Source: a virus (Duplodnaviria > Heunggongvirae > Uroviricota > Caudoviricetes). Taken from it: DNA of 36,682 bases. Position numbers and translations under genes: made by a program. Below the pieces are notes generated by a model. That model had not been told where the DNA came from and ran no database searches. It saw only the letters and a list, made by a program, of their open reading frames with translations. Position 1 is the stretch's first letter; the number at the start of each line of letters is the position of its first letter. The stretch lies in the IMG/VR virus record IMGVR_UViG_2609459792_000013; one strand, written 5' to 3'. Shown here in pieces: positions 3,947 through 25,971 of this stretch.

Positions 3947-4800
3947 GCACCATCCTGAAATGGGCGGGAAATAAAACTGCCATAATGTCCGAACTGAAAA
4001 AACATCTTCCTGCTGGCCCGCGACTGGTTGAACCTTTCGCGGGTTCCTGTGCTGTGATGATGGAGACGGATTATCCCAGCTATCTGGTTGCGGATATTAA
4101 TCCTGATTTAATCAACCTCTATAAAAAGGTTGCCGCTGATTGTGAATCGTTTATATCTCGCGCCAGAGTTTTATTTGAGATCGCAAACAGGGAGGTGGCT
4201 TATTACAACATAAGGCAGGAGTTTAATTACTCAACTGAAATTACTGATTTCATGAAAGCGGTATATTTCCTGTATCTCAATCGTCACGGTTACCGTGGTT
4301 TATGTCGCTATAACAAGAGCGGGCATTTCAACATTCCCTACGGTAATTATAAAAATCCGTATTTCCCTGAAAAAGAAATTCGCGCATTTGCAGAAAAGGC
4401 CCAGCGAGCAACGTTTATCTGCGCCAGCTTTGATGAAACGCTGGCGATGTTGAAGGCGGGGGATGTGGTGTATTGCGATCCGCCGTATGACGGTACGTTT
4501 TCCGGCTATCACACTGACGGCTTCACTGAAGATGACCAGTATCACCTGGCATCTGTTCTTGAACATCGGTCATCAGAAGGACATCCGGTCATTGTTTCTA
4601 ACAGTGACACATCCCTGATCCGTTCGCTGTATCGCAATTTTACTCACCACTACATCAAGGCAAAACGCAGCATCGGTGTGGCAGCTGGCGAGGGTAAATC
4701 AGCAACAGAAATCATTGCTGTTTCCGGGCCGCGCTGCTGGGTGGGATTTGATTATTCGCGTGGCGTGGATAGTTCTGCCGTGTACGGAGTACGTGCATGA
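3943..4800 (+). CDS. dam: DNA adenine methyltransferase (Dam-like, N6-adenine; probably GATC)
   Basis: ATG at 3943 ([11 protein letters not shown]). Motif [10 protein letters not shown] and motif IV DPPY; long collinear similarity to E. coli Dam as I recall it ([32 protein letters not shown]). Confidence 0.85.
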
Positions 4801-7211
4801 GTCATGCCGATATGAACAACTGCTGCGGCTTTAACGAAGCTGCCGCATCGTTCTCATGGAACAGCCCGAAAAAGGCCATTAACCCTTATCTGGACCCGGT
4901 GGAAGTTGCGCCGGTTTCTACGCTTTCAAACCTGATCACTCTGTATGCTGCCGATAACGAGCAGGAACAGCTGCGCCGTGAGGCGCTGAGTGATCAGGTC
5001 TGGGAGCGTTATTTCTTTAATGAATCCCGTGATCCTGTCCAGCGCGAAATGGAACAGGATAAGCTCATTAGTCGGGCAAAGCTGGCGCATGAGCAGCAGC
5101 GTTTTAATCCGGATATGGTCATTCTGGCGGACGTCAACGCCCAGCCTTCCCATATCAGCAAGCCGCTGATGCAACGTATTGAATACTTCAGCAGCCTGGG
5201 CAGGCCAAAGGCTTATTCCCGCTATTTACGTGAGACGATTAAGCCATGTTTGGAACGACTGGAGCATGTACGCGACAGTCAGCTATCTGCATCTTTTCGC
5301 TTTATGGCAAGCCATGAAGGGCTGGACGGCCTGCTGATCCTGCCTGAAATGAGTCAGGATCAGGTGAAACGCCTGTCCACCTTGGTAGCTGCGCATATGA
5401 GTATGTGCCTTGATGCCGCTTGTGGCGATTTGTATGCCACCGATGACGTTAAGCCAGAAGAAATCCGCAATACATGGGAAAGGGTGGCAGCGGAAACCCT
5501 GCGTCTGGATGTCATCCCGCCTGCGTTTGAGCAACTCCGTCGGAAAAGAAACCGCCGTAAACCCGTGCCCTATGAACTCATTCCGGGTTCGCTGGCGCGT
5601 ATGTTGTGCGCCGACTGGTGGTATCGGAAATTATGGAAGATGCGTTGCGAATGGCGGGAAGAGCAGTTGCGTGCAGTCTGCCTTGTCAGCAAAAAAGCAT
5701 CTCCTTATGTCAGCTATGAAGCCGTGATGCATAAACGTGAGCAGCGCCGTAAGTCGCTGGAGTTTTTCCGTTCTCATGAACTGGTGAACGAAGACGGCGA
5801 CACGCTGGACATGGAGGATGTGGTAAACGCCAGCAGCAGCAACCCAGCGCATCGCCGCAATGAGATGATGGCCTGTGTTAAAGGTCTGGAGCTTATCGCG
5901 GAAATGCGCGGTGACTGCGCCGTTTTCTACACCATCACCTGTCCGTCACGTTTCCATTCCACGCTAAACAACGGCAGGCCCAACCCAACCTGGACAAATG
6001 CGACGGTAAGACAAAGCAGTGATTATCTGGTCGGCATGTTTGCTGCATTTCGTAAGGCGATGCACAAAGCCGGATTGCGGTGGTATGGCGTGCGGGTGGC
6101 TGAGCCGCATCATGACGGTACAGTTCACTGGCACCTGTTGTGTTTTATGCGCAAAAAAGACCGCCGCACCATCACTGCATTACTGCGTAAGTTTGCCATC
6201 CGTGAAGACCGCGAGGAGCTGGGCAATAACACTGGGCCGCGCTTTAAGTCTGAGTTGATTAACCCGCGCAAAGGTACGCCAACAAGCTACATCGCGAAAT
6301 ACATCAGTAAGAACATTGACGGGCGTGGTCTGGCTGGCGAGATCAGCAAGGAAACGGGGAAATCCCTGCGTGATAATGCTGAATACGTTAATGCCTGGGC
6401 GTCTCTGCATCGTGTTCAGCAATTCCGCTTCTTTGGCATTCCGGGGCGTCAGGCTTACCGTGAACTGCGATTGCTGGCTGGTCAGGCGGCAAGGCAACAG
6501 GGGGACAAAAAAGCAGGTGCGCCGGTACTGGATAACCCGCGCCTTGATGCCATTCTGGCTGCTGCTGATGCTGGTTGTTTTGCCACCTACATCATGAAGC
6601 AGGGTGGCGTACTGGTTCCCCGCAAATATCACCTCATCAGAACTGCTTATGAAATCAACGAAGAGCCGACCGCCTATGGCGATCACGGCATTCGTATTTA
6701 TGGCATCTGGTCACCTATTGCAGAGGGCAAGATCTGCACTCATGCCGTGAAGTGGAAAATGGTTCGTAAGGCCGTTGACGTTCAGGAGGCGGCAGCCGAC
6801 CAGGGCGCTTGCGCCCCTTGGACTCGTGGCAATAACTGTCCCCTTGCTGAAAATTTGTACCAACAAGGGAAAGACAAATCAGCTGATGGAGATACCAGAA
6901 CGGATATCACCCGCATGGATGACAAGGAGTTGCACGATTACCTGCACAGTATGAGCAAAAAAGAGCGCCGGGAACTGGCAGCAAGGTTACGCCTGGTGAA
7001 ACCGAAACGGCGTAAAGACTACAAACAACGAATTACAGACCATCAGCGACTGCAGCTCGTGTATGAACTGAAGTCCAGGGGATTTGATGGCAGCGAGAAA
7101 GAGGTCGATTTACTGCTTCGCGGCGGCAGTATTCCGTCAGGAGCAGGCCTGCGTATCTTCTATCGGAACCAGCGTTTGCAGGAAGATGATAAGTGGCGAA
7201 ACCTGTATTAA
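4797..7211 (+). CDS. A: Rolling-circle replication initiator (P2 gpA-like)
   Basis: 804 aa; HUH-type motif [10 protein letters not shown] and Y-x3-Y active-site pair (YIAKY), as in P2 A. Start overlaps the Dam stop. Confidence 0.85.
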
Positions 7212-7303
7212 TTACGCGGGTTAACAATTCGTGCTCTTAATAATACCAGGCATATCAGGCTGATGAGCGTAAAAAAACGTTTTACATCAGTAAGATTATT
7301 ATA

Positions 7304-7323
7304 TACTGTAAATATAAACAGTG
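7304..7323 (+). promoter_or_regulatory. LexA (SOS) box overlapping a candidate promoter
   Basis: TACTGTAAATATAAACAGTG is a perfect CTGT-N8-ACAG with AT-rich spacer (CTGT 7306-7309, ACAG 7318-7321). -35 TTTACA (7281-7286) and, 17 bp later, -10 TACTGT (7304-7309) overlap it; AGGAGG RBS and ATG at 7364 follow. Confidence 0.65.
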
Positions 7324-7363
7324 GTTATGTATACAGTATTGCTTTGGTGTCATAGGAGGAAAG

Positions 7364-7552
7364 ATGCAGGACTATTTTTTGGAGTCTTTGAAGCTCCAGC
7401 GCATTGATTTTTTTCTTAAGCTTGTAGCGGCTAGTGAGTGTAGTGATGAAGAGAAGGGGCTGGCTCTGCAGTGGGTTTCAGAGCTGACTGATGAGTTGAT
7501 GGCGAAAATTCGTGCCCATGAATATAACCGTGTAATGGATCTTCCCGGTTAG
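7364..7552 (+). CDS. Small acidic protein (62 aa) under putative SOS control; Tum-like antirepressor position, function unknown
   Basis: Strong AGGAGG RBS; first gene after the LexA-box promoter; sits where 186 carries its LexA-controlled tum operon (A to cos). Confidence 0.6.
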   Translation: MQDYFLESLKLQRIDFFLKLVAASECSDEEKGLALQWVSELTDELMAKIRAHEYNRVMDLPG

Positions 7553-7563
7553 CAGCAGGGGCG

Positions 7564-7598
7564 TTGCTGGCGTGAGAACTAGATTCTCGCGTCAGCAA
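7564..7598 (+). other. 15-bp-stem hairpin between the 62-aa and 387-aa ORFs
   Basis: Arm 7564-7578 TTGCTGGCGTGAGAA pairs with arm 7584-7598 TTCTCGCGTCAGCAA (13 Watson-Crick + 2 G-U pairs), 5-nt loop; no following U-tract. Confidence 0.4.
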
Positions 7599-7722
7599 GG
7601 TCAACTAAGGATTGAAACAGAAAGCCCTTGAAAACAGTAGCAAGTTGCCTATTATCTACGCTGTATTTAATCGATGTCATTGGCTGTAATACCTTAAGTG
7701 ATATTGAAAGGCGGTGTGGGGA

Positions 7723-8883
7723 ATGGATCTGGCTAAAGTTGAAGAACGCGTCCGAAGAGTCATAGGGACAATGGAGTCTGCCGAGCTTGATGAATATTTT
7801 TGGGGTAAGCGCTCGGGTTTGGGAGACTCATTACCTCCGTATTATCTCGTTTATTTTCTTTTGGTAGATTTACTGAAATTTAAAAATCGTGGGGTTGATG
7901 AGAAGATTTCTTTTTCTATCCCAGTCCGGATTGATGGGACTGTCGTAATTATAGAACATCGTAAACTTGGTTTAGATATATTTATCAAGAGTGATGATGA
8001 TATAGAGCAAGCTAAAACTGTTTTGAGACATATTTGCGCAGGGGTTAAAGCTGCTACGAAATTTTTTGACTCGCTTGCAGACAATGCAGCAAAGACTTCA
8101 AATCTAAATGTTAATAACAATGCTAATTCTCTTTATGATAGGTTTTGCTATTTTTTAGAGCTATATAAACAGAAGCTTGATGAAGTTGCTGCTGGCCAAG
8201 AGTCTAAACTGGAAGTTGATAGTGAGTTTAAGTCTGATAATTTTTTCAGCCTGTTACAATCCACTTTTGAACAATCAAATAAGATAATTGAACTCCGAAG
8301 AGAGGCTATGTGGTTAGCAACGTCTGCAATTGAGTCATTTTTCAATTGGACCGAGCATGTTTTCATTCTTATTGCAATCTTGAAGGGTGAGATAAAAAAT
8401 GGGAATGATGTGGCTGATAAAGTTGGGAAAGAATGGGGGGAGAAATTCAAATTAGCCATTGATATTAACTCTTCCAGTCTAAAATCATTCTATGAACGTT
8501 TACTTATACTCAGAAAACAGGTGCGTAATTTTGTAGCCCATGGCGCCTTCGGTAAGGATGGGCAAGCATTGGAATTTCACTCAAGTGTAGGGGCTGTGCC
8601 ACTATTGCTGCCTCATCGAGAAAATAAAGAACGTTTCAAGTTTGGAAATGGTGTACATTTTTTGGCACCTGAAGCAATGCAATTAATTAACGATTTTCTT
8701 GAAAATTTGTGGCAGGGAGAACTGTCCCCAGCAAAAATTTATATTGAATCTGGATGTCCTTTAATACTATCTTACGTAACTAATGGAACCTATGCGGAGG
8801 CGATGAAATCAGAAAGGAATATGGACTTATTGGTTAATTACTTAACTCGTGAGATGGATAATGCCGCAAACATGGATTGGTAA
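7723..8883 (+). CDS. Cargo protein (387 aa), unknown function; candidate HEPN-like nuclease (R-N-x3-H motif)
   Basis: Long AT-rich ORF (ATG 7723; track start 7714 is a GTG) in the P2 tin/old slot. Motif LRKQVRNFVAHG matches the HEPN Rx4-6H signature; no Walker A motif seen. Confidence 0.75.
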   Translation: MDLAKVEERVRRVIGTMESAELDEYFWGKRSGLGDSLPPYYLVYFLLVDLLKFKNRGVDEKISFSIPVRIDGTVVIIEHRKLGLDIFIKSDDDIEQAKTVLRHICAGVKAATKFFDSLADNAAKTSNLNVNNNANSLYDRFCYFLELYKQKLDEVAAGQESKLEVDSEFKSDNFFSLLQSTFEQSNKIIELRREAMWLATSAIESFFNWTEHVFILIAILKGEIKNGNDVADKVGKEWGEKFKLAIDINSSSLKSFYERLLILRKQVRNFVAHGAFGKDGQALEFHSSVGAVPLLLPHRENKERFKFGNGVHFLAPEAMQLINDFLENLWQGELSPAKIYIESGCPLILSYVTNGTYAEAMKSERNMDLLVNYLTREMDNAANMDW

Positions 8884-9083
8884 ACTCTAGGTGCGGGTTA
8901 CAAACACACAAAAAATCTTCCTGAGTTAGGTGTTATCCCAACCCAAGGCTGTGTCAGGAAAACTTCATATGGCGCATGAGATCGCATGATAGTATGACGA
9001 TCGTTTTCGCTGATGCCAGCCTGAGCTGGCGGGCTGTTGCATATGTCATGCAGGCGCATGAAAACCACTGCATAAAGCGGGTA

Positions 9084-9102
9084 GGCGTGGCGGGGATACG
9101 AG
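9084..9102 (+). other. Putative cos (cohesive-end) site
   Basis: GGCGTGGCGGGGATACGAG: the first 13 nt match the 186/P2 cos 19-mer as I recall it (GGCGTGGCGGGGAAAGCAT / GGCGAGGCGGGGAAAGCAC). Lies in a GC-rich non-coding spacer upstream of the Q-P packaging genes. Confidence 0.5.
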
Positions 9103-9208
9103 CGCGCGGGATGACATAACAGATTGAATTGAAAAATATTGACTAAATGTAAAATGCGAAGGATATTTAGCCCCTCTATGAAGTTTTAGATATGGAAAAT
9201 GATAGGTT

Positions 9209-9499
9209 ATGAAAACGATATATAGCTATGATTACCAATACTTGCCTAAAGGGTCCACAAGACCAATTGATGACGGAGATATAGTAGGCTGTTCGTCAGA
9301 AGAAAATCCTTTTCTTCTACTTCCCAATGTAGGTGATTTTGTCTCTATATGTAATGACAATAGTCGGTCTTCGTTTAGTGGTATTGTTAAAACTAGATAT
9401 TTCACTTATACGAGAATAAGTGAGGAGTGCGTACAATGTTCAATTAATATTGTAGTTGCAGAATCTGATGTAGATTGGGGTACTCTTATTAAAGAATAA
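9209..9499 (+). CDS. Cargo protein (96 aa), cytoplasmic, unknown function
   Basis: AT-rich ORF between cos and Q; candidate promoter upstream (TTGACT at 9140-9145); no recognisable motif. Confidence 0.6.
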   Translation: MKTIYSYDYQYLPKGSTRPIDDGDIVGCSSEENPFLLLPNVGDFVSICNDNSRSSFSGIVKTRYFTYTRISEECVQCSINIVVAESDVDWGTLIKE

Positions 9500-9554
9500 T
9501 ATGGGGCGTCTGCGTAAGTGGGCGCTATTAAAATAAAATGGAATCTTGTAATGT

Positions 9555-10241
9555 ATGGTTAAATTTAATAATAACTTTGATTTTCCATTGGTAACAATAC
9601 TGACGGTGTTGCTATTTATATTGGCATATTTTTTTAAACTTGGTGAGGCCGTTTATTTTGGTTATCCAGCAATACTTATATCATTAGATTTAACGAGTGT
9701 TGCGAATATTTCTTTAAAGCTTTTTTTCTATTTTGGTAGTATTGTTATAGGTGTTTTTAATTTTATTTTGAATGATGGTGCGATTAAACTTAATAAAATT
9801 AAGTATGTTCTTTGGATTTTTATTGCCATAACAATATTTTCAGTTTTTTTAAGTTTTAAGAGGGGGGAGAAAGACTTAGTTAACTATCTTAATGGTGGTC
9901 TTTTTGGTATTTGTTCATGGTTGGTGGTAATGTCGTTGTTCAAAACATTTGAACGAAGTGGTGATTTGATTAATATAGATTTCGTATATGCCATATTAAC
10001 GGTTTTCTTTATGTCAGTTACTAGTTTTCTTGGAGGGATTAATTATCATAATCAGTTTGCATCTGTTCTATGGAAAACCTTGGATGGAAAAATAGTAGTT
10101 GGAGAATATAACGGCAGTTTTGTTTTAAAGAAATGCGTAGATGGCAAAGGGGTTTTTAGCTTTAGAGAGGTAAATGGTAGCGAATTTGTTGAGGTTGTAA
10201 ATTATGTGGAAGGGAAGTTTAATCCAAGGTGCAATAGATAA
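9555..10241 (+). CDS. Cargo membrane protein (228 aa), about five TM helices plus a roughly 60-aa C-terminal soluble domain
   Basis: Hydrophobic stretches LVTILTVLLFILAYFF, ISLKLFFYFGSIVIGVFNFIL, YVLWIFIAITIFSVFLSF, LFGICSWLVVMSLF, FVYAILTVFFMSVTSFLGGI; very AT-rich; ends 25 bp before the convergent Q stop. Confidence 0.7.
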   Translation: MVKFNNNFDFPLVTILTVLLFILAYFFKLGEAVYFGYPAILISLDLTSVANISLKLFFYFGSIVIGVFNFILNDGAIKLNKIKYVLWIFIAITIFSVFLSFKRGEKDLVNYLNGGLFGICSWLVVMSLFKTFERSGDLINIDFVYAILTVFFMSVTSFLGGINYHNQFASVLWKTLDGKIVVGEYNGSFVLKKCVDGKGVFSFREVNGSEFVEVVNYVEGKFNPRCNR

Positions 10242-10266
10242 AGGTGCCAGGGCACCTTTCAAATAA

Positions 10267-11298
10267 TTATTCAAGTTTGTAGGCGTCAAAACTGATAACA
10301 GTTTTACCTAACCATATATTCAATTCTTCAAATCTTTTTTGCAATGATGTTAGTTCATTTCTTACAAAAACATTACTCGCCTTCTCCACATCCCCAAACC
10401 CTCCAACATTATTAGGCATAATCCCCATCATTTGCGGCGGCACGCGGTGCGCAGCCATCATGTCATCCCGGCTCACGTTCTTGATATTCAAAAATTCATC
10501 CTTTGCCGCGACTTCTGACAGAGGAATAATCTGAAGCCCGTCCTTTTTGCCGTTAGGCGAGTACATAAACAGGTTGCGGAAGTTGCCTGGACCTTTGGCG
10601 CTTTTCATCGCGTTGCGGAGGTTGTTCACATCTTCCTGGTTCTGCGCGGCGTCGGTCATATACATGATGAAGCCAGCATGACTGCCGTTAATGTAATACT
10701 TTCGACGGAACAGCGTGGCGGACTCATTGAGCAGGGCGGACGGAATGGCAGAAAGATAGCCGGGCAAGCCGTAGATCTCCTGGTTAATGTCCGGTTCCAT
10801 CAGATGAAAAATGCTGCCTTTCGTGAACTGATATGGCTGGGTTGTCATACCGTATTGCACAAACCAGTAGGTATCCAAGTCTAACCCGCGTCGGGTGTAT
10901 TTTGCCAGCGCAGGCTCAAGGGCGATAACTTCACCGAAGCGGTTCGTGCGTTTCTCCAAGTAGGCGTTACCAAAAACCAAATAGTCCTGCACAAAACGCG
11001 AAAAAGCCTGCTGGCTGAGCAGCGGGTGAGGGATGTAGGTGCTGGTCAAAATATTGCATTTCACCGCAATCGGTGAGCTGTGATGCACGGCGGCGCGGAA
11101 GGTTCGTGCCAGCCCGTCAAAGCTGACGGGCGGCTCATACCAGCGATCCATCTGTACGCATTCCACATAGTCCAGCAGTTCGCGGCGGTCCAGAACAGGA
11201 ACGGGATCACCGAAGCTGAATGCTTCGGCTGAAGTCTGGCTTTTATGCTGGTTCTGGTTCGTCGACGCAGCGCGGTTCTTCTTACTCTTTCCCATCAA
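10267..11298 (-). CDS. Q: Portal protein (P2 gpQ-like)
   Basis: 343 aa, recalled P2 Q similarity; operon with P on the minus strand, start overlapping the P stop. Confidence 0.85.
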   Translation of the reverse strand: MMGKSKKNRAASTNQNQHKSQTSAEAFSFGDPVPVLDRRELLDYVECVQMDRWYEPPVSFDGLARTFRAAVHHSSPIAVKCNILTSTYIPHPLLSQQAFSRFVQDYLVFGNAYLEKRTNRFGEVIALEPALAKYTRRGLDLDTYWFVQYGMTTQPYQFTKGSIFHLMEPDINQEIYGLPGYLSAIPSALLNESATLFRRKYYINGSHAGFIMYMTDAAQNQEDVNNLRNAMKSAKGPGNFRNLFMYSPNGKKDGLQIIPLSEVAAKDEFLNIKNVSRDDMMAAHRVPPQMMGIMPNNVGGFGDVEKASNVFVRNELTSLQKRFEELNIWLGKTVISFDAYKLE

Positions 11299-13061
11299 AA
11301 AATCTCCACAATATTGCTGGCATTGGCGGACTCGCCCTGCAGCGGTTCGTTAAACAGTGCGTGCATTGTTGCCCAGGCCAGATCGGCATGGCTGGCTTCT
11401 TCGCTGCGGCTGGCTTCATAGGTCGGGCGGTTGCCGCTGGCGGTGGTGGCGCGACGGATTGCCATGAATGACTGCGCAATGTCGGTGTGTCCGGCGTCAA
11501 ATTCCAGGCGGCGGTGACTGATAATGTCGTAGGCCTTGAGTACCAGGGCGTTTTTAACGTTGGGGTTGTAGACAAACTCCCGGACGGCAGGAAAAAACGC
11601 TTTCACGTTCTCGTAAACCCCGTGACCGACGCCGGTCGAGTCGATGCCGATATAGGTCACGTTATACTGTTCGGTCAGTTTTTTGATGGCGTCAGCCTGG
11701 GCGCGGAAGTCCATTCCGCGCCACTGGTGACGCTCAAGAATGCGGAACTTACCGCCCTGCACGGCTGGCGGTGCCACCACCACGCATCCGGCGCTGTCGC
11801 CGTTCTGCGTACCTTTTGCCGGGTCATAACCGATCCACACTTCGCGCCAGCCAAACGGGCGCAGGGCCAGTGCATGAAAGTCGGTCCAGACTTCCCAGCT
11901 GTCCACCATGCACGCCTGCAGCTCGCTGAGCGGGAACACGGACGCGAGATCGTCCACGAATTCACACATCAGCAGGTTCTGGTATTCGTCCGGGCTGTAT
12001 TCCATGCGCAACTGGTCAAGGTCGAACAGGTTACAGCCGCCGCGCACCGCATCTTCCACGGTGACTATCTGGCGGTATTGCCCGTCTGCACACAGCAGGC
12101 CTGGAGCCAGATTGCTGTGGGACAGGTCGATGTCCACCTTGTCGGCTTTATTGCGCCCACGGTTGAATAGCGCACCGGACCAGAACGGATAAGCACTGTG
12201 TGTCAGGCTGGATGGCGTGGAAAAATAGGTTTGTCGCCATTTTTTGTGAATAGCCATACCGGAAGCCACTTTGCGCAGCTCCTGGAATTTCGGGATCCAG
12301 AAATATTCATCCAGATACAGGTTGCCGTGGTAACTCTGGGCCGTGCGGGCATTGGTGCCGAGGAAATACAGTGTGGCCCCGTTGGGAAGCACCATCGGAT
12401 CGCCTTTCAGCTCCACTTCCACTTCTTTGGCGAAGTCGATGATGTACTGCTTAAAGACGTGGGCCTGTGCCTTGCTGGCGGAAAGGAAAATCTGGTTACG
12501 TCCGGTAAGCAGAGCGTCAATCAGGGCTTCACGGGCAAAGTAAAAGGTCGCGCCGATCTGGCGTGACTTCAGCAGGTTGCGGATGCGGTTGGTTTTTCCG
12601 GCTTCCCACCAGTGGCGCTGGTAGTTGAACATGGAGGAATGGAAGATTTCTTCCAGCTTCTCAATCTGCTCATCGGTGAAAACATTCTTTTCCGGCTGAC
12701 GGCGCGGGCCTTTGTTGCGGTTGGCGACGTTAGGGTTTAAGTCGGCTTCGTTGCCGCCATTGTTAAACTTGCCGATCCGCGCGTGGCGTTCCGACTGGCG
12801 CGCCAGCAGGTCAATCTCTTTGAAATCTTTCCCTTCTTTGTGCTCCTTCATAATGAGCTGGCAGTAGCGTGCGGCGGTGGTGAGCTGCATCTGATCCAGC
12901 GGCCCATAGTCACCCCACTTGTCGCGTTTCTTCCAGCTGTGAACGGTTGCAACTTTCTCGCCCAGCATTTCAGCAATGCGGGCTACACGGTATCCCTGAA
13001 AGTACAGCAGCATGGCCTGCCGACGGGGATCGAGATCTGCGGGTGTCAGTGTGGTGTTCAT
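11295..13061 (-). CDS. P: Terminase large (ATPase) subunit (P2 gpP-like)
   Basis: 588 aa in the position and orientation of P2 P; an alternative start at 13013 is possible. Confidence 0.85.
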   Translation of the reverse strand: MNTTLTPADLDPRRQAMLLYFQGYRVARIAEMLGEKVATVHSWKKRDKWGDYGPLDQMQLTTAARYCQLIMKEHKEGKDFKEIDLLARQSERHARIGKFNNGGNEADLNPNVANRNKGPRRQPEKNVFTDEQIEKLEEIFHSSMFNYQRHWWEAGKTNRIRNLLKSRQIGATFYFAREALIDALLTGRNQIFLSASKAQAHVFKQYIIDFAKEVEVELKGDPMVLPNGATLYFLGTNARTAQSYHGNLYLDEYFWIPKFQELRKVASGMAIHKKWRQTYFSTPSSLTHSAYPFWSGALFNRGRNKADKVDIDLSHSNLAPGLLCADGQYRQIVTVEDAVRGGCNLFDLDQLRMEYSPDEYQNLLMCEFVDDLASVFPLSELQACMVDSWEVWTDFHALALRPFGWREVWIGYDPAKGTQNGDSAGCVVVAPPAVQGGKFRILERHQWRGMDFRAQADAIKKLTEQYNVTYIGIDSTGVGHGVYENVKAFFPAVREFVYNPNVKNALVLKAYDIISHRRLEFDAGHTDIAQSFMAIRRATTASGNRPTYEASRSEEASHADLAWATMHALFNEPLQGESANASNIVEIF

Positions 13062-13107
13062 GGCACAAACCTACAGCCTTGAATGAAGGCTTTCCCCGCC
13101 TGCGGTT

Positions 13108-13125
13108 TGTGTGGTAGTCGGTACA
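13108..13125. promoter_or_regulatory. Late-promoter activator dyad TGT-N12-ACA in the P/O divergent region
   Basis: TGTGTGGTAGTCGGTACA matches the dyad I recall as the Ogr/B-type late activator site (upstream of sigma70 late promoters). Centre is 87.5 bp from the O ATG and 55.5 bp from the P ATG. Confidence 0.55.
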
Positions 13126-13203
13126 AATACCGCGCATTGTTTCACTGCCCCCATCACCGCAACCATAAGGCTCCAGTAAGTTTTTTCTAACGGAGCACGG
13201 CTC

Positions 13204-14037
13204 ATGACAGTGAAAGCAAAGCGTTTTCGCATCGGGGTGGAAGGTGCCACCACCGACGGACGCGAAATCCAGCGTGAATGGCTGGAACAGATGGCAGCCA
13301 GCTACAACCCGGCGGTGTACACCGCGCTGATTAACCTTGAGCACATCAAGTCTTATCTGCCGGACAGCACCTTTAACCGCTACGGCAAGGTGACGGCGCT
13401 GTTTGCTGAAGAAATCACGGAAGGCCCGCTGGCGGGCAAGATGGCACTGTATGCCGACGTTGAGCCAACGGAGTCCCTGGTGGAACTGGTGAAAAAAGGC
13501 CAGAAATTATTCACCTCTATGGAAGTCAGCCCGAAGTTTGCAGATACGGGCAAAGCCTACCTGGTCGGCCTGGCTGCTACAGATGACCCTGCCAGTCTGG
13601 GCACTGAAATGCTGACATTCAGCGCCAGTGCAGCCCATAACCCGCTGGCAAACCGCAAGCAGAATCCTGCCAATCTTTTTACCGCTGCAGAGGAAACGGT
13701 GATCGAACTGGAAGAAGTCCAGGACGAAAAACCATCCCTGTTTGCCCGTGTCACGGCGCTGTTCACCAAAAAAGAGCAATCCGATGATGCCCGGTTCTCT
13801 GATGTGCATAAGGCCGTGGAGCTGGTCGCCACTGAGCAGCAAAACCTGAGTGCGCGCACCGAAAAATCCCTGTCTGAACAGGAAGAACGCCTGTCTGAGC
13901 TGGAGACAGCCCTGCAGGCACAGCTGACCGCCTTTAACGAACTGGTGGACAAGTTGAGCCATGAAGACAGCCGCCAGGACTACCGCCAGCGTGCAACAGG
14001 CGGTAACGCCCCCGCTGACACTCTGACCAATTGCTGA
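13204..14037 (+). CDS. O: Capsid scaffolding protein (gpO-like)
   Basis: 277 aa, first gene of the rightward late operon, acidic coiled-coil C-terminal half. Confidence 0.85.
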   Translation: MTVKAKRFRIGVEGATTDGREIQREWLEQMAASYNPAVYTALINLEHIKSYLPDSTFNRYGKVTALFAEEITEGPLAGKMALYADVEPTESLVELVKKGQKLFTSMEVSPKFADTGKAYLVGLAATDDPASLGTEMLTFSASAAHNPLANRKQNPANLFTAAEETVIELEEVQDEKPSLFARVTALFTKKEQSDDARFSDVHKAVELVATEQQNLSARTEKSLSEQEERLSELETALQAQLTAFNELVDKLSHEDSRQDYRQRATGGNAPADTLTNC

Positions 14038-14053
14038 TGGAGCACAAAACCTG

Positions 14054-15112
14054 ATGAAGAAGAATACCCGCTTTGCTTTTAACGCTTACCTGCAGCAGCT
14101 GGCGCGTCTGAACGGTGTGGCAGTTGAAGAACTGTCCAGCAAGTTCACCGTGGAGCCGTCTGTGCAGCAGACGCTGGAAGACCAGATCCAGCAGTCCGCC
14201 GCTTTCCTGACGCTGATTAACGTCACGCCAGTGACTGAGCAGTCCGGTCAGCTGCTGGGGCTGGGTGTTGGCAGCACCATTGCCGGAACCACTGACACCA
14301 CCGCGAAAGAGCGTGAACCTGTCGATCCGACGCTGATGGTCGATGTGGAATACAAATGCGAACAGACCAACTTTGACACGGTGCTGACCTACGCGAAGCT
14401 GGACCTGTGGGCGAAGTTTCAGGATTTCCAGGTGCGTATCCGTGACGCCATCGTGAAACGTCAGGCACTGGACCGCATCATGATCGGCTTTAACGGCGTG
14501 AAGCGTGCGAAAACCTCCAACCGTAGTGAAAACCCGCTGCTGCAGGATGTGAACAAAGGCTGGCTGCAGAAAATCCGTGAGGATGCACCGGATCACGTCA
14601 TGGGCAGCACCACCACGGGTGGTGAAACCACACCGGGCGCGGTGAAAGTCGGGAAAGGTGGCGAATATGCCAACCTAGACGCCGTGGTGATGGATGCTGT
14701 CAATGAGCTTATCGACGTGGTCTACCAGGACGATGACGATCTGGTGGTGATTTGCGGTCGTGAGCTGCTGTCTGACAAGTATTTCCCGCTGGTCAACAAA
14801 GAGCAGGAAAACAGTGAAAAACTGGCTGCCGATATGATCATCAGCCAGAAACGCATGGGGGGCCTGCAGGCCGTGCGTGCGCCGTTCTTCCCGCCGAATG
14901 CACTGCTGATTACCCGTCTGGATAACCTGTCCATTTACTGGCAGGAAGATACCCGCCGCCGTTCAGTTATCGACAACCCGAAACGTGACCGGATTGAAAA
15001 TTTTGAATCCGTTAATGAAGCCTACGTGGTTGAGGACTACCGCTGCGCCGCACTGGTGGAAAACATCCAGATTGGCGACTTCAGCGCCGCCGCAGCAGAA
15101 GCCGGAGCGTAA
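14054..15112 (+). CDS. N: Major capsid protein (gpN-like)
   Basis: 352 aa; N-terminus TRFAFNAYL...KFTVEPSV matches recalled P2 N. Confidence 0.9.
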   Translation: MKKNTRFAFNAYLQQLARLNGVAVEELSSKFTVEPSVQQTLEDQIQQSAAFLTLINVTPVTEQSGQLLGLGVGSTIAGTTDTTAKEREPVDPTLMVDVEYKCEQTNFDTVLTYAKLDLWAKFQDFQVRIRDAIVKRQALDRIMIGFNGVKRAKTSNRSENPLLQDVNKGWLQKIREDAPDHVMGSTTTGGETTPGAVKVGKGGEYANLDAVVMDAVNELIDVVYQDDDDLVVICGRELLSDKYFPLVNKEQENSEKLAADMIISQKRMGGLQAVRAPFFPPNALLITRLDNLSIYWQEDTRRRSVIDNPKRDRIENFESVNEAYVVEDYRCAALVENIQIGDFSAAAAEAGA

Positions 15113-15115
15113 CCC

Positions 15116-15766
15116 ATGAGCCTGAGTCCCGCACGGCAGCATCGCCTGCGCGTTCAGGCTGAACAGGCCGCCCGTGAGGGCGGCAGCGTTCGCCACGCGT
15201 CGGGCTATGACCTGATGCTGCTGCAACTGGCAGAAGACCGCCGCCGTCTCAAGGGCGTTCAGTCCACGGTCAAAAAAGCGGAAATAAAGGTGGAGCTGCT
15301 GCCGAAATATGCCGCCTGGGCGGAGGGCGTCCTGGCTGCCGGAGGCGCTCAACAGGATGACGTGCTGATGTATGTGATGCTGTGGCGCATTGATGCCGGA
15401 GATTATGCCGGGGCGCTGGAGATCGGGCGTCATGCCCTGCGTCATGGCTGGGTGATGCCGCTGGGTAACCGCAACGTGCAGACCGTGCTGGCAGAGGAAA
15501 TGGCAGATGCAGCGCAGAGCGCAATGCTTGCCGCCACCGGCTTTGATGCCGATCTGTTGCTGCAGACGCTGGAGCTGACAGACGGTCTGGATATGCCGGA
15601 CCAGTCACGGGCGCGTCTGCATAAAGCGATTGGCGCTGTCCTGAGTGAAAGCAATCCGGCTTCCGCCCTTAATCATCTCAACCATGCGTTACAGCTCGAT
15701 CCCCGCTGTGGCGTGAAAAAAGACAAACAGCAGCTGGAGCGCAGACTGCGCAATGACAGCCGCTGA
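15116..15766 (+). CDS. M: Terminase small (endonuclease) subunit (gpM-like)
   Basis: 216 aa; GAQDDVLMYVMLWRIDAGDYAGALEI matches recalled P2 M. Confidence 0.85.
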   Translation: MSLSPARQHRLRVQAEQAAREGGSVRHASGYDLMLLQLAEDRRRLKGVQSTVKKAEIKVELLPKYAAWAEGVLAAGGAQQDDVLMYVMLWRIDAGDYAGALEIGRHALRHGWVMPLGNRNVQTVLAEEMADAAQSAMLAATGFDADLLLQTLELTDGLDMPDQSRARLHKAIGAVLSESNPASALNHLNHALQLDPRCGVKKDKQQLERRLRNDSR

Positions 15767-15860
15767 CAGAACGTGCCCCGCGCACGGGCGGCACGGGGTG
15801 GCGAAAGGCACTGCCACATCAAAACCCCGTCCACCGCCCTTTATTTCAGGAGAAAGCAGC

Positions 15861-16325
15861 ATGAAGTTTGTTGCGCCAGAACAGGCACCGGAACAGGCGG
15901 AAATCATCAGAAATACGCCGTTCTGGCCTGATGTGGACCTGTCGGAGTTTCGCAGTGTCATGCGCACTGACGGCACGGTGACGCAGCCGCGTTTAAAGCA
16001 GGTTGCGCTGTCGGCAATTTCGGAGGTCAACGCAGAGCTGTATGAGTTTCGCAGACGTCAGCAGATGCTGGGATATGCCTCGCTGGCAGAGGTTCCGGCT
16101 GAACAGCTGGACGGCAAAAGTGAGCGCATTCATCACTATTTCAACGCGGTTTACTGCTGGGCACGCGCCATGCTCAACGAGCGTTATCAGGACTATGACG
16201 CCACGGCATCCGGTGTGAAGCGGGGCGAGGAACTGGCGGAATCCAGCGGTGATTTGTGGCGTGACGCCCGCTGGGCCATCAGCCGGGTGCAGGATGCGCC
16301 GCACTGCACAGTGGAGCTTATCTGA
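15861..16325 (+). CDS. L: Head completion/stabilisation protein (gpL-like)
   Basis: ATG at 15861 with AGGAGA RBS (track ORF starts earlier at 15753); 154 aa; position after M. Confidence 0.8.
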   Translation: MKFVAPEQAPEQAEIIRNTPFWPDVDLSEFRSVMRTDGTVTQPRLKQVALSAISEVNAELYEFRRRQQMLGYASLAEVPAEQLDGKSERIHHYFNAVYCWARAMLNERYQDYDATASGVKRGEELAESSGDLWRDARWAISRVQDAPHCTVELI

Positions 16326-16528
16326 TGAAAGTGCGTGCGCATCAGTATGACACGGTGGACGCGCTTTGCTGGCGTCAGTACGGGCGCACGCAGGGTGTCA
16401 CGGAGCAGGTACTGAAGGCAAATCCGGGGCTTGCCGAATATGGCCCCTTTTTACCTCACGGGCTGCAGGTGGAGCTGCCGGACATTCCGACCACCACCAC
16501 CGTGCAGACCGTCCAGCTATGGGACTGA
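16325..16528 (+). CDS. X: Tail protein X (gpX-like)
   Basis: 67 aa; start overlaps the L stop (ATGA); matches recalled P2 X. Confidence 0.8.
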   Translation: MKVRAHQYDTVDALCWRQYGRTQGVTEQVLKANPGLAEYGPFLPHGLQVELPDIPTTTTVQTVQLWD

Positions 16529-16531
16529 ATT

Positions 16532-16747
16532 ATGACGCTTGAGCGAATCAGCGCCTTTATCACGTACTGCATCGCCGTTGTGCTGGCCTGGCTGGGCGAT
16601 TTGTCCATCAAGGATGCCTCAACGCTGGGCGGCCTGATGATTGGTGTGCTGATGCTGGCTATCAACTGGTACTACAAACACAAAGCCTACCAGCTTCTGC
16701 GCGACGGGCAGATCTCGCGGGAGGACTATGAATCCATCAATCGTTAA
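16532..16747 (+). CDS. Holin, two TM domains (class II, pinholin-like)
   Basis: 71 aa with two hydrophobic helices and a charged C-terminus; immediately upstream of a SAR-type endolysin. Confidence 0.7.
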   Translation: MTLERISAFITYCIAVVLAWLGDLSIKDASTLGGLMIGVLMLAINWYYKHKAYQLLRDGQISREDYESINR

Positions 16748-17243
16748 ACGCTGCCTTGTCGGGGCCGTGCTGGCTATTGCTGCCACGCTGCCGGGTTTTC
16801 AGCAGCTTCACACCTCCGTGGAGGGGCTGAAACTGATTGCAGATTACGAAGGCTGTCGTCTGCAGCCGTATCAGTGCAGCGCGGGCGTCTGGACCGACGG
16901 CATTGGTAACACGTCAGGCGTCATTCCCGGCAAAACCATTACGGAACGACAGGCAGCTGAAGGGCTGATCTCCAACGTGCTACGAGTGGAGCGGGCGATG
17001 GAAAGGTGTGTGAAGCAACAGCCGCCGCAGAAGGTGTATGACGCTACGGTGTCGTTTGCCTTCAACGTGGGGACGGGCAATGCCTGCAGTTCCACACTGG
17101 TGAAATTACTCAATCAGCGGCGCTGGGCGGATGCGTGCCGACAGTTGCCGCGCTGGGTTTATGTAAAAGGTGTTTTTAATCAGGGGCTGGATAACCGCCG
17201 TGCGCGGGAGATGGCCTGGTGCCTTAAAGGAGCTGGACTATGA
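16728..17243 (+). CDS. Endolysin, lysozyme (GH24-like) with N-terminal SAR signal-anchor
   Basis: Weakly hydrophobic Gly/Ala-rich N-terminus (LVGAVLAIAATLPG), then catalytic-region motif EGLKLIADYEGCRLQPYQCSAGVWTDGIGNT typical of phage 21-type lysozymes. Confidence 0.85.
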   Translation: MNPSIVKRCLVGAVLAIAATLPGFQQLHTSVEGLKLIADYEGCRLQPYQCSAGVWTDGIGNTSGVIPGKTITERQAAEGLISNVLRVERAMERCVKQQPPQKVYDATVSFAFNVGTGNACSSTLVKLLNQRRWADACRQLPRWVYVKGVFNQGLDNRRAREMAWCLKGAGL

Positions 17244-17668
17244 CGCGTGCTCTGGCAGTAGTGGTGGCGCTGGCACTCGTTGCGCTGGGCTGGCAGTCGA
17301 GGCGGCTTAACAGCGCCAGCCACACCATCGAAACGCAGCGCGCGGCGCTGAAAAGTAAAGCGCAGGAACTAACGAAGAAAAATAGCCAGCTGATCGGTCT
17401 GTCCATTCTGGCTGAAACCAACAACCGGGAGCAGGCGCGGCTCTATGCCGACGCAGAACAGACCAGCGCACTGCTGAGACAACGACAACACCGGATTGAG
17501 GAACTGAAACGTGAGAACGAGGATTTACGCCGCTGGGCTGATACTCCTTTGCCTGCTGACATTATCCGGCTGCGGGAACGCCCCACGCTCACCGGAGGTG
17601 CAGCTTACCGTCAGTGGTTGTCCGCGAGTGACGCCGTGTCGGCTGGAGCAGGCAGCGCCGCGCACTAA
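17240..17668 (+). CDS. i-spanin (Rz/LysB-like)
   Basis: N-terminal TM anchor plus a charged coiled-coil periplasmic domain; directly after the endolysin. Confidence 0.75.
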   Translation: MTRALAVVVALALVALGWQSRRLNSASHTIETQRAALKSKAQELTKKNSQLIGLSILAETNNREQARLYADAEQTSALLRQRQHRIEELKRENEDLRRWADTPLPADIIRLRERPTLTGGAAYRQWLSASDAVSAGAGSAAH

Positions 17669-17801
17669 TGGTGATCTGAACGCGTTGCTGGATGAAACGG
17701 AGGCTGCCTGGGCGGTCTGTGCAGACAAAGTGGACATGATTATTGCGTGTCAGGAGCGAAACAGTGAACAAACCACAATCCCTGCGCCACGCCCTCAATA
17801 A
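17511..17801 (+). CDS. o-spanin (Rz1/LysC-like lipoprotein), overlapping the i-spanin in another frame
   Basis: Lipoprotein signal with lipobox LTLSGC and a Pro-rich mature part; starts inside the i-spanin gene and extends past its stop. Confidence 0.7.
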   Translation: MRTRIYAAGLILLCLLTLSGCGNAPRSPEVQLTVSGCPRVTPCRLEQAAPRTNGDLNALLDETEAAWAVCADKVDMIIACQERNSEQTTIPAPRPQ

Positions 17802-18195
17802 AGCGGTGCCTTATGTCCGCAATAACCCGGACAAACTGCATCTGTTTGTGGATAACGGTTCGCTGGTTGCCACGGGGGCCAGCTCCATGTCGTGGGAGTA
17901 CCGTTACACACTGAACGCGGTGATTGAGGATTTCAGCGGCGACCAGAATCTGCTGATGGCCCCGGTTTTGCTGTGGCTGAGGGATAACCAGCCCGATGCC
18001 ATCAATAACCCGGCGTTACGGGAAAAGCTATTCACCTTTGAGGTGGATATTCTGCGCAACGATGTCTGTGATATCAGCCTGAACCTGCAACTGACGGAAC
18101 GTGTGCTGGTCAGCACTGACGGCAGTGTGTCGAGCGTTGAAGCTATAGCGGAACCTGATGCATCTGAAGAAATGTGGGCGGTGAAACGTGGCTGA
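17764..18195 (+). CDS. R: Tail completion protein R (gpR-like)
   Basis: GTG at 17764 with AGGAG RBS (track ORF starts at a TTG at 17743); called from recalled P2 R similarity and position. Confidence 0.8.
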   Translation: MNKPQSLRHALNKAVPYVRNNPDKLHLFVDNGSLVATGASSMSWEYRYTLNAVIEDFSGDQNLLMAPVLLWLRDNQPDAINNPALREKLFTFEVDILRNDVCDISLNLQLTERVLVSTDGSVSSVEAIAEPDASEEMWAVKRG

Positions 18196-18631
18196 ACTGC
18201 AGAAGGTGGACGACTGGCTGAGTGCTTTGCTGGCGAATCTGGAGCCAGCCGCAAGAAGCCGCATGATGCGCCAGCTGGCGCAGGAACTGCGCCGGACACA
18301 GCAGCAGAACATCAGGATGCAGCGCAATCCAGATGGCAGCAGTTATGAACCGCGCAGGGCAACAGCACGCAGCAAAAAGGGGCACATCAAACGTCAGATG
18401 TTTACAAAGCTGCGCACCTCTAAATACCTTCAAACTACCGCCAGCGCCGATTCTGCCAGCGTGCAGTTTGAAGGTAAGGTGCAGCGCATTGCACGCGTTC
18501 ACCATTACGGCCTGCGTGATCGCGTCAGTCGTCATAGTTTTAAAGTGAAATATGCGCAACGGCGTCTTCTAGGCGTTAATAAAGACATAGAAATTTGGGT
18601 TCGAAACACACTGAAGCACTGGCTTGTTTAG
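18188..18631 (+). CDS. S: Tail completion protein S (gpS-like)
   Basis: 147 aa, GTG start overlapping the R stop; position as in P2. Confidence 0.8.
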   Translation: MAELQKVDDWLSALLANLEPAARSRMMRQLAQELRRTQQQNIRMQRNPDGSSYEPRRATARSKKGHIKRQMFTKLRTSKYLQTTASADSASVQFEGKVQRIARVHHYGLRDRVSRHSFKVKYAQRRLLGVNKDIEIWVRNTLKHWLV

Positions 18632-18645
18632 TGCTTCAGTGTGTT
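18605..18645. other. Perfect 16-bp inverted repeat (9-nt loop) at the convergent S / cargo-gene junction
   Basis: AACACACTGAAGCACT (18605-18620) and AGTGCTTCAGTGTGTT (18630-18645) are exact reverse complements; spans the S stop codon; no clear U-tract on either strand. Confidence 0.4.
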
Positions 18646-18656
18646 AAAACAGAAGA

Positions 18657-20408
18657 CTATTGGTTGAATATGAAGCTGATAATATTTTCAGGAGTGAGCT
18701 CTATGTTTTTTTTATTAAGTTTTTGAATGTACATTTTATATTTCATTTCAACGTTTCGGAAGCCTTGCGCAACAGAAAGTATTTCTACAGGATGAGATGA
18801 AAGTTTTATTAAGGAGTTAATGACTGTATCTAGGTAGATGTGAGCATGTTCAACTAAAACATTTGTTTTTGATGGGGTTTTTCCAGTGTGAACTATCAAG
18901 TTTCTAGTTCTATATATTCTCCTAATTTGCCAGTTGATTCTTTCTGCATGATTTTTAAGTGCCTGATACATAGTATCAGTTGAGGAAATTAAATTGCTAA
19001 TATATTCAAATCTCTCTTTCAATAACGGAAATTGTGATAGTTCTATCTTAAACTGATTGATGCTAGGGGCATGTTCTTGCGAAGCAACAAGAATTACAAA
19101 TGATTTGGCTGCATCGCTATCTCCAATTAGTCTTAGAAGTGACATGGTTCGAGGATGATTCCATCGTTGTAAGTCTTTTATAAGATTCCTTACTAGGTCT
19201 TCAATATAATTCAGGTTTAAAAATGGTGTTAATGAATTAACGATATGTTCTATCGTGGATTGTTCTTCTTTTTTTGATTCGTCGGGGATGAGTGATTCAA
19301 TAGCAATCCATAAATTTAAAAGCTGATTTTCTACAGCATTTGTCTGTAGTGCCATTGAATGTAATTGTACACTTCTTATGAATTTATTGAAAGAATCCTT
19401 GCGCATTCTGAAATTATTCATGAATTGTTCGAGTCTTCTGCTTGCGTGTTCCTGAACCAGATCCTTGCAGCGGTGCATTGGGTTTATGCTGCTTCTTATA
19501 TTGATTTTTTCACCATTTTCACTAACTACAATGTTCTCTGCAGACCATGATGCTTCTTGCTTATGATGATAGAGAGAAAGCAAAGTTGATGCGAGCTTTA
19601 AGTTTCTTTCAGCTACCCTTCTAGCCGTGAATGGATCAAGTGCTTTAACATGCTTAACTAAAATAGTTCGTTGTTCATGATTATCGAAGAAATCTGTTTC
19701 ATTAATATTTTCGGGGGTTTCAAGAACAACCTCAATTTCTAATTGTGATAAGCATGGAGTAATATAACTAAAAGATTTGTCAGCATTGAAATAAACTGAA
19801 TATTCTTGTGTCTCTGAGGGGATGTTCTCTAGGAATGTAATAATCTCTTCATTTGAACTGATCTCTCGTTCTCTTTGGAAGAAATGTTTTTTTAGACTTT
19901 CCATCAAATATTCTTGACTTAATCCTTTTGATATTAGATGGGTAATCAACAGTCTTGTAAACTTTCGAATTTTATTTGGGTTGTATTCTGAAGTTATTGT
20001 AGAGCAAAGTTCACTGATGAGTTTGCTTTCATAATTACCAACATTAAGTTGAACTCTCAGTAATTCAAGAGTTATTTTTAGATTTTTATTTCCTAACTGA
20101 TTGTTTTGGAGTTGATCTAAAAATGAACCTAAAGGGTTTTTTAGAAGACTGATTGCGATGTCATCATTCTTAATATTTTTAGTTAATTCGTCAATGACGT
20201 GGGATATATGTGCGGGGCTTATGTTGCCTTTTTCTATATCATCGATTGTTGATATTGCTTCTATACATAAACTTGGAGTGTTCATTATAGAAGGTTTATA
20301 TGTACTATGGGTGTAATCAAAGAGAAGTTCCTCCATTAACTCGGTGAAATAAATAAGCGCAGTGCATTGTTCAATATGATTCCAGTTGTGTAGTCTTCTA
20401 AATTTCAT
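18657..20408 (-). CDS. Cargo protein (583 aa) antisense to the late operon in the S-V moron slot; candidate HEPN-like abortive-infection protein
   Basis: Very AT-rich ORF; ATG at 20408 (MKFRRLHNWNH...). The track TTG start at 20528 would overlap gpV and is rejected. C-terminal motif IRRIYRTRNLIVHTGK matches R-N-x3-H-x-G; no Walker A motif. Confidence 0.8.
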   Translation of the reverse strand: MKFRRLHNWNHIEQCTALIYFTELMEELLFDYTHSTYKPSIMNTPSLCIEAISTIDDIEKGNISPAHISHVIDELTKNIKNDDIAISLLKNPLGSFLDQLQNNQLGNKNLKITLELLRVQLNVGNYESKLISELCSTITSEYNPNKIRKFTRLLITHLISKGLSQEYLMESLKKHFFQREREISSNEEIITFLENIPSETQEYSVYFNADKSFSYITPCLSQLEIEVVLETPENINETDFFDNHEQRTILVKHVKALDPFTARRVAERNLKLASTLLSLYHHKQEASWSAENIVVSENGEKINIRSSINPMHRCKDLVQEHASRRLEQFMNNFRMRKDSFNKFIRSVQLHSMALQTNAVENQLLNLWIAIESLIPDESKKEEQSTIEHIVNSLTPFLNLNYIEDLVRNLIKDLQRWNHPRTMSLLRLIGDSDAAKSFVILVASQEHAPSINQFKIELSQFPLLKERFEYISNLISSTDTMYQALKNHAERINWQIRRIYRTRNLIVHTGKTPSKTNVLVEHAHIYLDTVINSLIKLSSHPVEILSVAQGFRNVEMKYKMYIQKLNKKNIELTPENIISFIFNQ

Positions 20409-20452
20409 ATTAATACCTTGTTTTGTGAAGCTTGAATTTACCTTTAGCGCAT

Positions 20453-20470: not shown

Positions 20471-20516
20471 AACATGGTTTGTTTGTGATCTCAAGTGTTT
20501 GATTAAGAATTTGAGA

Positions 20517-21095
20517 ATGAACGTACAACTCACGGAAATCATGCGCCTTATCACCAATCTGATCCGCACAGGGGTAGTCACCGAAGTGGACCGGGAAAAC
20601 TGGCTTTGCAGGGTGAAAACGGGCGAGCTTGAAACCAACTGGATCAGCTGGCTGACGCTACGTGCCGGAAATGCCCGGACATGGTGGCGACCATCGGAAG
20701 GTGAGCAGGTGGTGCTGCTGAGTCTGGGCGGCAATCTGGAGACCGCCTTTGCGCTGCCCGCTGTCTATTCGAATCAGTTCGCACCACCGTCGACGTCGGC
20801 GGACGCCTGCGTGACAGAACATCCTGACGGTGGCTGGTTTGAATACGAACCCGCCACCGGGCGCTGGTATGTCAGGGGCATCAAATCAATGGTCATTGAG
20901 GCCGCTGACAACATCACCCTGAAAACCAGTGAGTTTGTACTGGAGGCTGACCGCACGCGCATTAACAGTGAAGTGGTGATCAATGGTGGAGTTACCCAGG
21001 GCGGCGGAGCGATGAGTTCTAACGGGATCGTGGTTGATGCGCATCAGCATACTGGCGTCCTGAAAGGCGGCGATACAACCGGAGGCCCGGTATGA
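20517..21095 (+). CDS. V: Baseplate spike protein (gpV-like)
   Basis: N-terminus MNVQLTEIMRLITNLIRTGVVTEVD resembles recalled P2 V; an alternative start at 20541 is possible. Confidence 0.8.
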   Translation: MNVQLTEIMRLITNLIRTGVVTEVDRENWLCRVKTGELETNWISWLTLRAGNARTWWRPSEGEQVVLLSLGGNLETAFALPAVYSNQFAPPSTSADACVTEHPDGGWFEYEPATGRWYVRGIKSMVIEAADNITLKTSEFVLEADRTRINSEVVINGGVTQGGGAMSSNGIVVDAHQHTGVLKGGDTTGGPV

Positions 21096-25893: not shown

Positions 25894-25916
25894 TCCCAAA
25901 CCAACGTTTATGAAAA
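25891..25916. other. Right recombination site of the invertible segment (hix/gix-like)
   Basis: TTCTCCCAAACC AA CGTTTATGAAAA resembles the hix/gix consensus TTATCAAAAACC AA GGTTTTTGATAA; about 55 bp upstream of the invertase start. Confidence 0.6.
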
Positions 25917-25971
25917 TGCAGAGATAATGACTAACTGGCATCATCTCCGGTTTTTATTCAGGGGGATGCTC

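Follow-up and report, generated by a model that had tools for sequence, protein, structure and literature searches.

The 36,682-nt window analyzed here (IMG/VR record IMGVR_UViG_2609459792_000013) is a P2/186-like prophage, whose phage backbone of approximately 55-60% GC is broken by two low-GC islands, at about 7200-10260 and about 18650-20450. Each island carries a cargo gene with a GC content below that of the window (0.51): the gene of protein A (7723-8883, plus strand; GC 0.38), a member of an uncharacterized HEPN-like family, and the gene of protein B (18657-20408, minus strand; GC 0.33), a protein of 583 amino acids (aa). Gene A is located between the genes of the replication endonuclease gpA (4797-7211, plus strand; Pfam domain Phage_GPA on the identical gene in locus L004, annotated 'replication endonuclease') and the portal protein gpQ (10267-11298, minus strand; Phage_portal in L004), which are the left and right borders of the main defense hotspot of P2-like phages (PMC9122126, PMC13586616). 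Gene B occupies a second slot, bordered by the genes of the tail completion protein gpS (18188-18631, plus strand; Pfam Phage_tail_S, E = 6.6e-39) and the baseplate spike gpV (20499-21095, plus strand; Pfam Phage_base_V plus Apex). Both cargo genes are variable low-GC cassettes flanked by conserved phage core genes, and both cassettes are found elsewhere with other neighbors and in other genomes. The two proteins share a short motif, which is probably the Rx4H signature of HEPN ribonucleases (RNases) present in two unrelated cargo families; protein B is the already characterized Ec2ApeA, and for protein A we infer an RNase activity and a role in defense.

The initial annotation of the window had noted the motif in both proteins, as VRNFVAHG and TRNLIVHTG, and had described it as R-N-(hydrophobic)3-H-x-G, preceded by basic residues and placed in the C-terminal third of each protein. 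The two stretches are indeed found at nt 8521-8544 on the plus strand (V267-G274 of the open reading frame starting with the ATG at 7723) and nt 18882-18908 on the minus strand (T501-G509 of the open reading frame starting with the ATG at 20408), and the motif arginine lies at fraction 0.69 of protein A (R268/386) and 0.86 of protein B (R502/583). The length of protein A has to be corrected from 387 to 386 aa, as the interval 7723-8883 includes the stop codon and the identical database protein has 386 aa. The pattern as written fits protein B (H-T-G), whereas in protein A the glycine directly follows the histidine, and the pattern common to both is therefore R-N-x3-H-(x)-G. Conservation was assessed in 47 relatives of protein A (43-66% identity), in a diverse set of 55 sequences with members down to 20-25% identity to protein A, and in 48 aligned relatives of protein B down to 35% identity. 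Within the motifs, R268, N269, H273, and G274 of protein A (R268-N-F-V-A-H273-G274; 8524-8544, plus strand) are invariant in both sets, and so are R502, N503, H507, and G509 of protein B (R502-N-L-I-V-H507-T-G509; 18882-18905, minus strand) in its 48 relatives. In proteins A and B the three residues in the middle of the motif are hydrophobic, a property that neither family conserves: the A family has F/Y/P/H, V/L/I/M, and A/S/T at these positions, and the B family has I/N/L/M/K, I, and V. Both motifs are indeed preceded by basic residues, although the register differs: position -4 is always R or K in the A family, and in the B family R497 and R500 are invariant and residue 496 is always R or K.

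When all 36,682 bases were translated in six frames, the pattern RN[AVILMFWC]3H was found exactly twice, namely in proteins A and B. From the amino-acid frequencies (approximately 4e-6 per position), the approximately 12,000 coding residues should contain about 0.05 matches, and the probability of two or more is about 0.001.

Protein B can be identified directly. It is identical at 581 of 583 positions (99.7%) to the 'Bacterial antiviral defense protein Ec2ApeA' found by the PDB sequence search (9HXI; entries 9HXB-9HXI), the two differences being D210 and T528, where the PDB chain has E and A, respectively. The PADLOC ApeA model matches residues 20-534 with E = 2.4e-12, and comparison with Ec3ApeA and Ec1ApeA gave E values of 2.3e-133 and 1.9e-12, respectively. 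According to the preprint describing them, ApeA proteins are HEPN anticodon nucleases which act by abortive infection, and Ec2ApeA forms a decameric ring of HEPN dimers in which residues 335-583 constitute a split HEPN domain with the HepT toxin as nearest structural relative (10.64898/2026.01.26.701840). The same text reports that 5'-phosphorylated deoxydinucleotides (pdNG), proposed by its authors to originate from the phage-induced breakdown of host DNA, activate the enzyme by binding to a pocket distal to the active site, and that the R502A variant of Ec2ApeA loses both defense and toxicity; tRNA anticodon-loop cleavage during infection was mapped with Ec1ApeA, Ec2ApeA being studied for structure and activation (10.64898/2026.01.26.701840). 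The published limits place the HEPN_ApeA domain (aa 335-583) at 18660-19406 on the minus strand (10.64898/2026.01.26.701840), and the essential R502 is the arginine of TRNLIVHTG. Every published catalytic, pocket, and interface residue of Ec2ApeA is kept in the window copy, including T36, Y37, S40, E74, R148, R152, Y401, Y469, H487, R490, Q494, H521, and Y525 as well as the interface residues R551, E554, Q99, Q548, R336, and E115. Protein B is thus Ec2ApeA, from which it shows no functional difference, and for this half of the observation the HEPN assignment is correct and already known. The Ec2ApeA preprint makes no mention of a prophage context, and the location of the gene in the gpS-gpV slot of the present prophage adds that Ec2ApeA is phage cargo. 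The ApeA family also possesses a second invariant R-x4-H sequence, R345-S-V-Q-L-H350 (19359-19376, minus strand), which stands at the beginning of the HEPN_ApeA region, before the catalytic R502/H507, and has no polar residue after the arginine.

Protein A, in contrast to protein B, is named by no curated library. No significant match was obtained with Pfam, NCBIfam, PADLOC, or PHROGs, and literature searches with protein accessions found no papers. The family is large: a database clustered at 90% identity contains 949 relatives, and at the 50% level at least 1000 clusters belong to it. All are annotated as 'hypothetical' and lack a precomputed Pfam domain. The exact protein is present in Escherichia coli, and near-identical cluster members occur in Klebsiella, Citrobacter, and Enterobacter. 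Searches for a link to annotated families gave little: a profile search of 1.84 billion representatives offered no bridge among the 150 matches listed, all of which were members of the A family, and the family profile run against PDB sequences returned only spurious matches (septin, Dicer). Among curated HEPN profiles, Pfam Csx1_HEPN matched 1 of the 47 members below threshold (E = 0.038; 14.8 bits vs a cutoff of 23), the match being centered on the motif, and in a lax PADLOC scan of the 55 diverse members, eight of 14 weak matches were to Csx1/Csm6 CARF-HEPN models (best E = 7e-4), which we regard as a weak but directional signal. Some members of the family, such as P0245 (633 aa), P0252 (500 aa), and P0270 (460 aa), are extended at the N- or C-terminus by 70-230 residues; these extensions gave no Pfam match and could be alternative sensor domains or the result of mis-called starts.

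Only ten columns are invariant in the alignment of the 55 diverse sequences: G83, N132, E211, W238, K241, R268, N269, H273, G274, and P293. The catalytic HEPN signature has been defined as Rx4-6H with a polar residue (N/D/H) after the arginine, helix 2 often contributing a conserved acid (PMC3710099). R268-N269-x3-H273 of protein A conforms to the Rx4-6H and polar-residue parts of this definition, and E211 (8353-8355, plus strand), which alignments A3 and A4 show to be invariant even among relatives with as little as 20% identity, is a candidate for the acidic residue of helix 2. With its invariant Rx4H, the polar residue after the arginine, and the conserved upstream glutamate as putative acidic residue, the protein matches the catalytic HEPN signature (PMC3710099).

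Structure prediction for the full protein A with AlphaFold2 gave a model with a predicted local distance difference test score (pLDDT) of 89 and a predicted template modeling score of 0.83; as the query began one codon early, the numbering of the model is shifted by +1. The model starts with an alpha/beta domain (about 1-124; 7723-8094, plus strand) consisting of helices and a three-stranded sheet (pLDDT > 90), which contains the conserved stretches LPPYYLVYFLLV, EK..WS.P, and HRKFGL and is a candidate sensor. It is followed by a predicted HEPN-like helical domain (aa 125-345; 8095-8757, plus strand) whose four-helix core has a protruding hairpin of long helices (134-167 and 171-220). After this hairpin come two short helices, the helix 251-272/274, a loop, and further helices, with a helical tail at the C-terminus. 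E211 is located on the second hairpin helix, which precedes the motif (172-221 in model numbering). Helix 251-272/274 is predicted to terminate at the motif, H273 forming the helix tip before the loop (pLDDT 84-87 within the motif, dropping directly behind it), so that the motif would occupy the canonical HEPN position, where core helix 3 ends and gives way to the loop leading to helix 4. The stretch after the motif (AFGK...FHS..GAVP...; residues about 275-315; 8545-8670, plus strand) includes several invariant residues and has a pLDDT of 45-69 in both AlphaFold runs; a regulatory loop that is flexible or depends on a partner is one possibility.

The predicted four-helix up-down bundle of protein A can be superposed on solved HEPN domains. 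In a structure search of 48,164 chains, five HEPN structures were found among the top 60 with near-complete coverage at about 3 Å: AbiA (8oz7_A; rank 1, score 9.0, 2.8 Å, 115/597 residues), HI0074 (1jog_A; rank 3, score 8.2, 3.3 Å, 127/135), the HEPN partner of a nucleotidyltransferase, an AMPylated 'HEPN toxin' (8xdj_A; rank 7, score 7.8, 3.5 Å, 121/130), YutE (1ylm_B; rank 38, score 7.1, 3.4 Å, 126/143), and TTHA0636 (1wwp_B; rank 56, score 6.9, 3.3 Å, 105/119). The latter two have been cited as HEPN domains (PMC3710099). A Foldseek search of the full-length model against the PDB returned only coiled-coil/SMC noise (E > 0.1). On the basis of the model, protein A very probably has a HEPN fold. 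That protein A is instead an unrelated helical protein in which RNxxxH matches ApeA by coincidence is a very improbable explanation, since a motif expected approximately 4e-6 times per position occurs twice and both times in cargo genes, is strictly invariant in the family, and is predicted to be placed canonically at a helix end, in addition to the five HEPN structures among the top 60 matches. The HEPN interpretation suggested by the initial annotation is supported.

To distinguish a shared HEPN-type module on different scaffolds from convergent chance matches, the initial annotation had proposed, among other checks, a profile-profile comparison of the C-terminal regions. With whole-family profiles, hhalign assigned to A and B a probability of 0.4-1.0% and did not even align the motifs; with profiles trimmed to the HEPN regions the value was 1.2%, and with 61-residue windows around the motifs (0.6%) only the eight residues RNxxxHxx were aligned. 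The only segment paired by hhalign is L-x-(D/E)-R-F-x-Y-F/I, residues 137-150 of protein A (8131-8172, plus strand) and 462-475 of protein B (18984-19025, minus strand); this pairing is insignificant (about 1% or less) and places the start of the first long helix of protein A against an insertion in the HEPN domain of ApeA. A specific, recently exchanged module, with protein A as a divergent or truncated ApeA, has in its favor only the eight-residue motif and the co-residence in one prophage, and we consider it extremely improbable. Besides the hhalign values, it is contradicted by the PADLOC ApeA hidden Markov model (HMM), which matched neither protein A nor any of its 55 relatives, by the different architectures (386 aa with an N-terminal alpha/beta domain in protein A; 583 aa with N, Mid, and split HEPN domains in protein B), and by the separate distribution of the two cassettes. 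While A and B travel together in this prophage lineage, which was seen on about twenty or more contigs, the A cassette (at least 98% identity) is present in ten and the B cassette in 11 of the complete E. coli genomes listed, and no accession is shared between the two lists. At the sensitivity of the hhalign and HMM comparisons, the identity of protein A as a divergent or truncated ApeA is refuted. As judged from these profiles, A and B have no detectable relationship beyond the superfamily level: the HEPN fold and the catalytic signature are common to both, and a recently exchanged module is not.

Protein A also differs from other known HEPN systems. The minimal HEPN toxins of HEPN-MNT pairs, i.e., HepT (5YEP/7AE8), HI0074 (1jog), 8xdj, YutE (1ylm), and TTHA0636 (1wwp), gave no sequence-profile match to protein A, which is three times larger, possesses in addition the alpha/beta domain at its N-terminus, an extension formed by the long helical hairpin, and a C-terminal tail, and has no adjacent MNT antitoxin gene. 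AbiA of Lactococcus lactis (PDB 8OZ7), with a C-terminal HEPN domain, is a reverse-transcriptase-like polymerase with an Rx6H motif, whereas protein A lacks a polymerase domain and has Rx4H. In its presumed logic, protein A would resemble DARNA/PD-T7-3 and Csm6/Csx1, in which a HEPN effector fused to a noncatalytic sensing domain is activated by an infection signal and cleaves tRNA or mRNA. The sensing parts differ, as DARNA combines an N-terminal HEPN domain (R117/H122) with a Pds5-like C-terminal domain and Csm6/Csx1 possess CARF domains, and the N-terminal domain of protein A matches none of these. DARNA/PD-T7-3 was considered as the identity of protein A and rejected, because the HEPN domain of DARNA, a protein of 456 aa, is N-terminal with R117/H122.

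The genomic context of the A family was inspected for partners and for hints to its role. In E. coli (locus L725), gene A is followed by a different cassette including a STAS-like protein, and in assembly L005 the pair of small open reading frames downstream of gene A is replaced. A Klebsiella relative with 61% identity lies in an integrase-bounded island (L008, 1-12359) in which the type I restriction-modification genes hsdR/M/S are followed by a DEAD/ResIII helicase of 1093 aa, then, at a distance of 13 bases, by the A relative, and finally by an unknown protein of 332-440 aa and an HNH/ScoMcrA-like nuclease. In Thalassospira indica, a relative with 47% identity is part of a string of helix-turn-helix, HipA, and A genes on a conjugative element (L002, 5843-8590), in which the A gene (7436-8590) is located directly downstream of hipB-hipA, with a one-base gap after hipA (6094-7434); this arrangement may point, for some lineages, to an operon that couples A to a kinase toxin system. 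The other relatives examined are solitary or adjoin a transposase fragment or an HNH gene. The relatives thus sit in defense islands and on mobile elements, and a conserved small partner gene beside A was seen in none of the contexts examined, which fits a single-gene system.

These contexts bear on the possibility that protein A is a HEPN toxin with a main role other than anti-phage defense, such as addiction or stabilization of its element or an inter-bacterial or anti-defense function. HEPN domains are common in toxin-antitoxin systems (PMC3710099), the Thalassospira relative follows hipB-hipA by a single base on a conjugative element, and about 2% of P2 hotspots contain a cytolethal distending toxin and some others further non-defense cargo (PMC9122126). 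We regard such a role as improbable, since a small partner gene is not conserved across the contexts of A and since the location in the main P2 defense hotspot, together with a relative in a restriction-modification island, points to defense.

If protein A is a defense RNase, as we consider probable, it would dimerize through its HEPN core and thereby form a composite active site from R268, N269, and H273, possibly with E211. The enzyme would be kept inactive until its noncatalytic parts sense an infection cue, and would then cleave RNA (tRNA or mRNA), so that translation is halted and the lysogen population is protected against competing phages. The prophage would in this case carry two independently triggered HEPN effectors. 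The main caution for protein A comes from AbiA, in which the motif is intact and yet no RNase activity was detected. By analogy, protein A might possess the HEPN fold and motif without RNase activity, the domain serving for dimerization or nucleic-acid binding and an effector activity residing elsewhere or being absent. This alternative appears unlikely, if somewhat less so than a function outside of defense, because R, N, H, and G as well as the upstream glutamate are invariant down to 20% identity, a pattern one would expect of catalytic residues rather than of purely structural ones, and because HEPN domains without catalysis usually lose the motif (PMC3710099).

A bolder proposal, toward and away from which we lean equally, is that protein A founds an unnamed single-gene anti-phage system, i.e., a HEPN RNase equipped with an alpha/beta sensor of its own at the N-terminus and a trigger unlike that of ApeA, widespread in Proteobacteria, and that the prophage deliberately pairs two HEPN effectors at two hotspots, which would broaden its abortive-infection coverage. 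A family with 949 matches at the level of 90% clusters bears the hallmarks of a HEPN nuclease and resides in the main P2 defense hotspot and in restriction-modification islands. Should the proposed function hold true, annotation tools would gain a HEPN defense family with a new sensor domain, and the prophage would offer a natural case for how two RNase effectors are combined in one element; since many HEPN defense proteins are already known, the advance would be incremental rather than conceptual.

Further features of the prophage include the CI repressor gene (1447-2022, minus strand) and integrase, terminase, capsid, lysis, and tail genes, and the right end of the window consists of host genes (Asp-Al_Ex transporter, ybjM). 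The gpA-gpQ hotspot contains a second cargo cassette downstream of gene A (9209-10241, plus strand), which codes for two uncharacterized proteins, one of 96 aa (PHROG 12676) and one of 228 aa (PHROG 35408), the latter with hydrophobic, apparently membrane-spanning stretches. The complete E. coli genomes with gene A do not contain this cassette, and related prophages have other genes in its place. A region at 24800-26538, with a GC content below that of the backbone, is devoted to tail-fiber switching and comprises a tail-fiber assembly protein (24800-25402, minus strand), a tail-collar fiber fragment (25402-25944, minus strand), and, in the opposite orientation and adjoining this fragment, a serine recombinase/invertase (25927-26538, plus strand).

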